Below are positions 1,064 through 23,785 of a stretch of DNA of 64,000 nucleotides, piece by piece. The notes under the pieces are model-generated. The model did no database searches. It had not been told where the DNA came from and was given only the letters and a program-made list of their open reading frames with translations. Numbering within the stretch: position 1 is the first letter of the stretch; every line of letters starts with the position of its first letter. The translations under genes were made by a program, and so were the position numbers. The DNA comes from Escherichia coli (GTDB taxonomy: Bacteria > Pseudomonadota > Gammaproteobacteria > Enterobacterales > Enterobacteriaceae). The stretch is from NCBI RefSeq assembly GCF_013315695.1, contig NZ_CP054353.1; one strand, 5' to 3'.

Positions 1064-2248
1064 TTAATTTGCGGCTTCCTGACGATGAAAACCTCGCCAC
1101 CAGACCAGTAAGTTAACCAGGGCAATCGTCGCGCCAGCCAGACAAACGCCAGCCCAACCGCCATGTTGCCAGGCTGAGGCTGAAATTAGCGAACCGGCAG
1201 CGCCGCCAATAAAGTAGCTGGTCATGTAACCTGCAGTCAGGCGATTACGCGCATCGGGGTAAATTCGATAAATTACCGTCTGGTTAGTGATGTGCACCCC
1301 CTGTACGGTGAGATCCAGCACCAGGATGCCGATAACCAGCGCCAGTACAGAAGTGTGTCCAAACCAGATAGCCAGCCATGAAAGTAACAGCAGCAGCAGG
1401 CCGAAAGTTGTGGTGAGGTGTGATTTGCCCTTATCGGCAAAACCGCCCGCCGGACGAGCGCCTAACGCCCCGGCAGCTCCTGCAAGTCCGAACAGACCAA
1501 TTACGCCATCGCTGTAGTTAAAAGGTGGAGCGGCAAGCAAAAAGGCCATTGAGGTCCAGAGAATGCTGAAGTTGGCAAAGGTCAGGCAGCCCAGCAACGC
1601 GCGGGTGCGCAGGATTTTATCGCTGATAAACATGCTGAAAACGGAACCCAACAACTGTGGGTAGTTGAGGTGGGTTTCTGATTTCATTTGTGGCAGACCA
1701 CGCCATAATGCCAGCGCCATCAGTGCCATTAACATCGAAGCAACCCAAAAGACGGTGCGCCAGCCGCCGAGATTCGCCAGCAATCCGGCAACGGTCCGTG
1801 CCAGCAAGATCCCCAATAGCAGACCGCTCATAATGGTGCCAACCACTTTGCCGCGTTTGTCCGGTGAAGCCAGCGTCGCTGCCAGTGGAACCAGAATTTG
1901 TGCCACGACTGAGAATAAACCGGTTAATGCCGTACCGAGGATCATCATCGCCAGCGACTGACTGCTGGCAGTGATTAACATGCCGCCTGCCGCCAGTAAG
2001 GTCATCGAGACAATCAGGCGGCGGCGTTCAAACATATCACCGAGGGGAACAAGAAACAGCAGACCTGCGGCATAGCCCAACTGCGCGGCGGTAACAATAA
2101 AGCCTGCCGAACTGGCGGAAAGGGAAAAGTTACGCGCGATGGTGTCGAGCAATGGCTGGGCGTAATAGTTACTGGCTACCGCCAGACCGGTGGCGATAGA
2201 CATCAGCACGATCAGCGCCGGGCTAAGCTCATGATTAGGTTTAGTCAT
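1064..2248 (-). CDS. ygaY: MFS transporter, intact (interrupted ygaX/ygaY pseudogene in K-12)
   Basis: 394-aa ORF with 12-TM-like hydrophobic profile; position between ygaZ and proX. Confidence 0.8.
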   Translation of the reverse strand: MTKPNHELSPALIVLMSIATGLAVASNYYAQPLLDTIARNFSLSASSAGFIVTAAQLGYAAGLLFLVPLGDMFERRRLIVSMTLLAAGGMLITASSQSLAMMILGTALTGLFSVVAQILVPLAATLASPDKRGKVVGTIMSGLLLGILLARTVAGLLANLGGWRTVFWVASMLMALMALALWRGLPQMKSETHLNYPQLLGSVFSMFISDKILRTRALLGCLTFANFSILWTSMAFLLAAPPFNYSDGVIGLFGLAGAAGALGARPAGGFADKGKSHLTTTFGLLLLLLSWLAIWFGHTSVLALVIGILVLDLTVQGVHITNQTVIYRIYPDARNRLTAGYMTSYFIGGAAGSLISASAWQHGGWAGVCLAGATIALVNLLVWWRGFHRQEAAN

Positions 2249-22471: not shown

Positions 22472-23563
<1,092 letters not shown>

Positions 23564-23785
23564 TTATTGTGATCAAAAGCAACAAATTGGTAACATTTAA
23601 CGTAGGGTATTAAGGCAAAGTGAGACAGGAAATGAATAACTAAAGCAACAGGTTAGGGGTGGATTACCATCAGAGAACAGATTTTCTGGTCGATAAAAAA
23701 CGGTAAATGGCTTCACTGCAAAATGACCGTTAGTAAACTAAACACATTATCTGCCCCGTTTTAGCGGGGCAGATATAACATTAAA

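Follow-up and report, generated by a model that had tools for sequence, protein, structure and literature searches.

The window, a stretch of 64,000 nucleotides of Escherichia coli DNA, carries two genes that are pseudogenes in K-12 and open here:

1064-2248, minus strand: ygaY, an uninterrupted 394-aa ORF with an ATG start, a predicted MFS transporter
23786-26038, minus strand: ygaQ, an uninterrupted 750-aa ORF of GH13 type (alpha-amylase family) with an ATG start, in an AT-rich islet

Both frames are unbroken at these positions, as the original prediction had it, and neither is truncated relative to full-length homologs: YgaY is 394 aa in orthologues as far as Citrobacter, and the main YgaQ cluster is 750 aa. 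The gene ygaY has proX on one side and ygaZ on the other. ygaQ sits between glaH and the tRNA-Ile(CAU) gene ileY, and has a GC content of 0.38, compared with 0.56-0.59 in its flanks. Because the frame stays open for 750 codons at 38% GC, ygaQ cannot be a chance ORF. RefSeq flags the ygaY orthologue of MG1655 as a ‘frameshifted’ pseudogene and the ygaQ orthologue of MG1655 and of the K-12 derivative JM83 as an ‘internal stop’ pseudogene. The pseudogene status of both genes in K-12 is thus confirmed, and both lesions are seen in alignment.

The window falls in a clone of five genomes (MSB1_4I, AF3, MS 21-1, OZ546925 and OZ546911). Its first 24,000 nucleotides (ygaZ through proVWX, the nrd genes and the gab genes) match only eight of 5,426 complete E. 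coli genomes at 99% identity or more, the rest lying at 95-99%; the window therefore represents a sparsely sampled lineage. ygaY alone is 95.3-97.3% identical to that of most strains. Human isolates of the lineage are MSB1_4I, AF3 (blood culture, UK) and MS 21-1 (colon, USA).

ygaY is a conserved gene that is broken in K-12

YgaY matches the Pfam families MFS_1 (PF07690; 142.6 bits, cutoff 33.4, residues 17-307) and MFS_4 (PF06779; 30.7 bits, cutoff 26.3, residues 31-381). Every NCBIfam model scored below its cutoff, the highest being TIGR00895 at 80 bits against a cutoff of 418, and these models assign YgaY to no characterised MFS subfamily or substrate. Crude Kyte-Doolittle hydropathy with a strict threshold gave 10 peaks, two of them overlapping, and did not resolve 12 transmembrane segments.

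The length of the protein is nearly fixed: 394 aa in E. coli, Shigella, E. fergusonii, E. marmotae and Citrobacter (93% identity for the Citrobacter orthologues), and 391-393 aa in E. albertii. The MS 21-1 protein (WP_000165687.1, annotated ‘MFS transporter’ with no pseudogene flag) is 100% identical to that of the window. The gene is present at a coverage of at least 80% in 5,413 of the 5,426 complete genomes. Between the window and K-12 there are 39 synonymous and 4 nonsynonymous differences (dN/dS 0.03). When compared with 20 orthologues from five species, the window protein has a single private residue, the conservative V172M, and zero changes at invariant columns. Judged by this conservation, ygaY is an ordinary core gene, near-universal and evidently under strong purifying selection. 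A scan for promoter and terminator consensus sequences around the gene gave counts not above those in shuffled sequence.

The K-12 lesion maps to a short repeat:

1981-1994, minus strand: perfect GGCGGCA-GGCGGCA tandem within ygaY (gene nt 255-268, from pairwise alignment)

Pairwise alignment shows that K-12 has lost one copy of GGCGGCA (7 bp), which shifts the frame and brings in a stop after 88 codons. This is a typical slippage deletion. The K-12 pseudogene occupies the orthologous locus between proX and ygaZ and is 95.8% identical to the window gene in nucleotides; it differs in holding one tandem copy only, whereas the window has both and so encodes the full 394 aa. A 47-nt probe, with a 28-nt seed that forms only across the K-12 deletion junction, found the deletion in 457 of the 5,426 genomes at an identity of at least 99%. 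Carriers among the matches listed are MG1655, C600, ER1709, O16:H48 and similar laboratory or K-12-type strains. For ygaY, K-12 is the exception.

The window ygaY is most likely functional, as a predicted MFS transporter whose expression and transport activity we infer. This part of the original prediction is well supported, given a near-universal gene under purifying selection that is full length here and has V172M as its sole private change. The ygaY of K-12, downstream of proVWX, is called a ‘cryptic’ MFS transporter gene, and its crypticity is already in the literature (bioRxiv 10.1101/2023.07.10.548347). Any study of ygaY in K-12 needs prior repair of the 7-bp deletion.

ygaQ is decaying across E. 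coli

The K-12 ygaQ is collinear with that of the window (2253 bp, 71 substitutions) at the orthologous locus between glaH and ileY, with 96.9% identity. The sites at which it and other strains carry nonsense codons are intact in the window:

25706-25708, minus strand: ygaQ codon 111, TGG in the window; TAG (W111*) in K-12 and others
25001-25003, minus strand: ygaQ codon 346, TGG in the window; TAG (W346*) in K-12 and others
24800-24802, minus strand: ygaQ codon 413, CAG in the window; TAG in the O157:H7 lineage; a Dcm site (CCAGG)
24197-24199, minus strand: ygaQ codon 614, TGG in the window; TAG (W614*) in K-12; the commonest ygaQ lesion

With TGG at codons 111, 346 and 614, and with both tandem copies in ygaY, the window does not carry K-12-type alleles. 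The annotation of W3110 splits the K-12 gene into ygaQ and ygaR.

The distribution of YgaQ is very narrow. The main E. coli cluster (15,629 member sequences) is 750 aa long, the E. albertii homolog is 738 aa with 59% identity, and there are a few metagenomic relatives (700-824 aa, 33-39% identity). Within E. coli, ygaQ reaches a coverage of at least 80% in 3,367 of the 5,426 complete genomes; about 734 genomes hold only the 3' part, and about 1,325 give no match. In one genome with a 3'-only copy the break abuts an IS3 element.

We sampled twelve full-length loci at even steps down the similarity ranking, and eight of them are pseudogenes. W111*, W346* and W614* occur in various combinations, Q413* arose independently in an O157-type strain, and two strains have 1-bp indels in addition. 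Site-specific probes found W614* in 2,403, W111* in 1,041 and Q413* in 304 (mostly O157:H7) of the 5,426 genomes. From these probe counts, the upper bound for an open frame is about 1,400-1,700 genomes (26-31%, percentages that describe this collection, enriched for K-12 and O157, and not nature), and the twelve-locus sample suggests about 1,100. Most complete E. coli genomes have ygaQ as a pseudogene or in truncated form, or lack it, and K-12 is not the odd one out. The implication of the original prediction that K-12 is peculiar at these loci thus applies to ygaY and fails for ygaQ.

Pairwise dN/dS values of 0.08-0.26 indicate that ygaQ was constrained for most of its history and that the lesions are comparatively recent. 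The K-12 gene has served to illustrate how horizontally acquired genes silenced by H-NS carry spurious intragenic promoters (PMC7229825). The many independent routes of its decay within one species make it a clear example of such a gene being lost.

The four nonsense lesions found in the ygaQ of other strains (codons 111, 346, 413 and 614; window positions 24197-25708) are all amber. Q413* of the O157:H7 lineage lies on a Dcm site (CCAGG>CTAGG), and the three Trp codons lie off Dcm sites. Dcm sites are a classic hotspot for deamination of 5-methylcytosine. We considered the amber-only bias as a sign of read-through or suppression and rejected it as not significant: a transitions-only null gives a probability of about 0.02, but with the Dcm site left aside the three TGG>TAG changes, against TGA, give 1/8.

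The predicted catalytic nucleophile of YgaQ is replaced in the window

As a single sequence, YgaQ matches the Pfam Alpha-amylase_C domain (PF02806; 28.3 bits, cutoff 21.2, residues 649-738). The catalytic domain PF00128 falls below its cutoff (18.6 against 22 bits), and all NCBIfam amylase models are below threshold. Given the sub-threshold catalytic hit, the GH13 assignment and the register of the catalytic motifs rest on a family profile and a structure model. A profile of 31 family members matches solved GH13 alpha-amylases in the PDB with E values of about 1e-61 to 1e-62. The AlphaFold model has a mean pLDDT of 85 and a pTM of 0.88, and Foldseek places it with the alpha-amylases of Pseudoalteromonas haloplanktis, Bacillus and Drosophila (target-normalised TM-score 0.73-0.79, E 4e-23). 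In the model, the amylase core does not include residues 1-215, confidence is low for residues 1-26 and for much of 100-160, and C-terminal beta-strands at 638-742 form an all-beta domain C. Residues R434, A437, K439, E481, H550 and D551 are invariant (31 of 31 members), and they map to GH13 regions II (G-x-R-x-D-A-x-K-H), III (the Glu acting as acid/base) and IV (N-H-D). The catalytic positions are as follows:

24731-24733, minus strand: ygaQ codon 436, CAT (His) in place of the family GAT (Asp), at the position of the GH13 region II nucleophile
24596-24598, minus strand: E481 codon (GAA), predicted general acid/base of region III; kept, 31 of 31
24386-24391, minus strand: H550-D551, in the NHD motif of region IV, predicted transition-state stabiliser; kept, 31 of 31, and aligned to the NHD of solved amylases

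YgaQ is thus predicted to be an enzyme of the GH13 alpha-amylase family, and a glycosidase by prediction even in its Asp form. Like the solved alpha-amylases (B. subtilis AmyE, 1BAG/1UA7; P. haloplanktis AHA, 1AQH/1G94; animal enzymes), it would have a (beta/alpha)8 core and a C-terminal beta-sandwich, and its regions II, III and IV align with theirs in register. It differs from them in an extra N-terminal region of about 215 aa, for which no homolog was detected, in a sequence identity of 15-19% in structural alignments, in having no obvious signal peptide on inspection and, in the window allele, in missing the nucleophile.

The region II motif reads GLRY-H-AAKH in the window, compared with Asp at the central position in K-12, the main E. 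coli cluster and E. albertii. Position 436 is Asp in 30 of the 31 family members, and the window is the sole exception. It aligns with D176 of the B. subtilis amylase 1BAG (GFRF[D176]AAKH), which is the nucleophile of that enzyme, and with D174 of the P. haloplanktis amylase (GFRF[D174]ASKH); the profile match to the PDB has the same register. Residue 436 directly follows strand 432-435 in the model, the place expected at the end of beta-4, and E481 likewise follows strand 477-480, as expected at the end of beta-5.

GH13 retaining enzymes form their covalent glycosyl-enzyme intermediate through the region II Asp, and replacement of this residue abolishes or drastically lowers activity; substitutions of the nucleophile cut kcat by orders of magnitude. 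The structure 1KXH of the P. haloplanktis enzyme has Asn in the column of YgaQ 436 (D174N), and its depositors call it an ‘inactive mutant’. A literature search for kinetics of alpha-amylase nucleophile mutants found nothing in the library searched, and the expected size of the loss with His-436 rests on this general knowledge and on the depositors' description. The window protein shares with the engineered mutant the substitution of the same aligned residue; it differs in being natural and in having His instead of Asn, and the effect of D436H is a prediction. Since the nucleophile Asp-436 is replaced by His, the window YgaQ appears to be catalytically disabled. It is probably a full-length, foldable protein with little or no glycosidase activity.

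The substitution is recent. The His-436 haplotype, an identical 55-mer, occurs in 4 of the 5,426 genomes, compared with about 4,000 for two Asp haplotype probes. Among 11 sampled strains (the window and 10 others), D436H is the sole residue private to the window. The ygaQ of MS 21-1 has Asp-436 and differs from the window at three nucleotides, all nonsynonymous: S198F and T408P are derived in MS 21-1, and D436H is derived in the sub-clone of the window. Recombination is an unlikely source of His-436, given that the 55-mer is confined to four genomes and that the nearest relatives have Asp on the same haplotype. The K-12 allele has ambers at 111, 346 and 614 together with Asp-436; the window allele has none of these ambers and has His-436.

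What the open frames mean

We consider it likely that the two genes have separate histories, with ygaY intact and functional and K-12 the exception, and ygaQ open and ancestral in frame, inactivated by D436H amid loss across the species. On this account ygaY would have been broken in K-12 by a private 7-bp slippage deletion in the GGCGGCA tandem. The AT-rich ygaQ would have come in by horizontal transfer; H-NS would silence it in K-12, and many independent lesions would be removing it from E. coli as a whole. The window lineage would have kept the ancestral open frame until GAT changed to CAT within a small clone, turning Asp-436 into His, and its ygaQ would amount to a pseudogene behind an unbroken frame. 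The original prediction had spoken of ancestral functional copies of both genes. This holds for ygaY, which is conserved (dN/dS 0.03), and for the ancestry of the ygaQ frame; the function of YgaQ is where it fails, D436H having probably inactivated the protein.

A YgaQ that is dead as a glycosidase could have kept a non-hydrolytic function, either carbohydrate binding or the activity ascribed to its N-terminus. The sole experimental paper on ygaQ dealt with the N-terminal 110 aa that remain in W3110 ahead of the first amber; it reported mitomycin-C resistance when this fragment is over-expressed, and a 5'-flap ssDNA nuclease activity (PMC4725251). D436H leaves that region untouched. Besides, the protein has no private residue other than D436H and is otherwise unchanged, and its model folds confidently. 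Some GH13 homologs are non-catalytic, for instance the heavy chains of heteromeric amino-acid transporters. We nevertheless regard a retained non-hydrolytic function as unlikely. The nuclease claim comes from an over-expressed fragment of a pseudogene, and part of that N-terminal region is among the low-confidence segments of the model. Moreover, nonsense, frameshift, IS and deletion lesions throughout the species indicate that no part of YgaQ is strongly needed in most lineages, and this decay makes a strongly selected role improbable.

That both genes are intact, ancestral and functional, with YgaQ(H436) a working enzyme, we hold to be quite improbable. In its favour, neither frame is interrupted or shortened, the identical protein of AF3 has received an ordinary PGAP accession (WP_001571799.1), the remaining residues of the catalytic motifs are all kept, and ygaQ was historically under purifying selection. 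Against this, the nucleophile Asp is gone, the equivalent D174N homolog was deposited as inactive, and the His allele is rare and recent. D436H as a sequencing or assembly error, or the window as a chimera, can be dismissed as very improbable: the change is of a single base, but the identical 55-mer is present in four separately deposited complete genomes, and five genomes match the entire 24-kb flank almost without differences.

The disabled ygaQ frame that we favour is a reminder that an uninterrupted frame need not encode a working protein, as a comparison at the level of ORFs would score the window strain as ‘retaining’ YgaQ despite the missense loss of its nucleophile. The substitution at the nucleophile adds a minor new detail and warns against calling pseudogenes from ORFs alone. 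That K-12 pseudogenes are intact in other isolates is ordinary and largely known strain variation, and both lesions are already in public annotation. The meaning for biology at large is small, and the useful points are practical.

ileY and the neighbouring islet genes

Other features lie beside ygaQ, in or after the AT-rich islet:

26596-26671, plus strand: ileY, tRNA-Ile2(CAU) gene, with substitutions at 26599 and 26667
27428-28882, plus strand: ORF of the YpjCB family/DUF5507 (484 aa, AT-rich, intact), so annotated by RefSeq in AF3 and MS 21-1
29689-34362, plus strand: 1557-aa ORF, after the islet

Over the 6.9 kb of 23489-30389, the window and MS 21-1 differ at six positions: the three in ygaQ, two in the 76-nt tRNA gene and one at 27954, in the ypjC-like ORF. 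Within these 6.9 kb they form a small-number cluster at functional sites in one AT-rich islet. Relative to both MS 21-1 and K-12, the two tRNA changes fall in the acceptor stem, where C4A creates an A4-G69 mismatch and C72U turns the G1-C72 pair into G1-U72; the predicted fold energy goes from -36.5 to -28.7 kcal/mol. The exact ileY variant occurs in 3 records among the 5,426 genomes, within the tiny sub-clone that carries YgaQ D436H. E. coli TilS reportedly requires the C4-G69 pair (PMC1635315). With that pair broken, this ileY copy may escape lysidinylation. The defect may be tolerated, since the median number of tRNA-Ile2 gene matches per genome is two; the second gene is presumably ileX.

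A more speculative reading, and a rather unlikely one, is that loss of ygaQ has been selected for in E. coli and not just tolerated, and that the ygaQ-ileY islet is shutting down in this clone. It draws on the number of independent hits (at least three ambers, the Dcm-site amber, frameshifts, the IS3 truncation and a deletion), on the position of the only YgaQ change private to the clone's lineage, which hits exactly the catalytic nucleophile when only some 3 of 750 residues would be such a target, and on the C4A change in the adjacent ileY, which breaks the base pair required by TilS. If loss were selected, missense changes such as D436H would be a ‘stealth’ form of inactivation, invisible to ORF-based pseudogene calling.

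An internal stop makes ypjCB a pseudogene in the annotation of the K-12 derivative JM83; it is therefore a third K-12 pseudogene that is open in the window, one that the original prediction did not list. The MS 21-1 counterpart of the 1557-aa ORF is annotated as an adhesin-like autotransporter, YpjA/EhaD.
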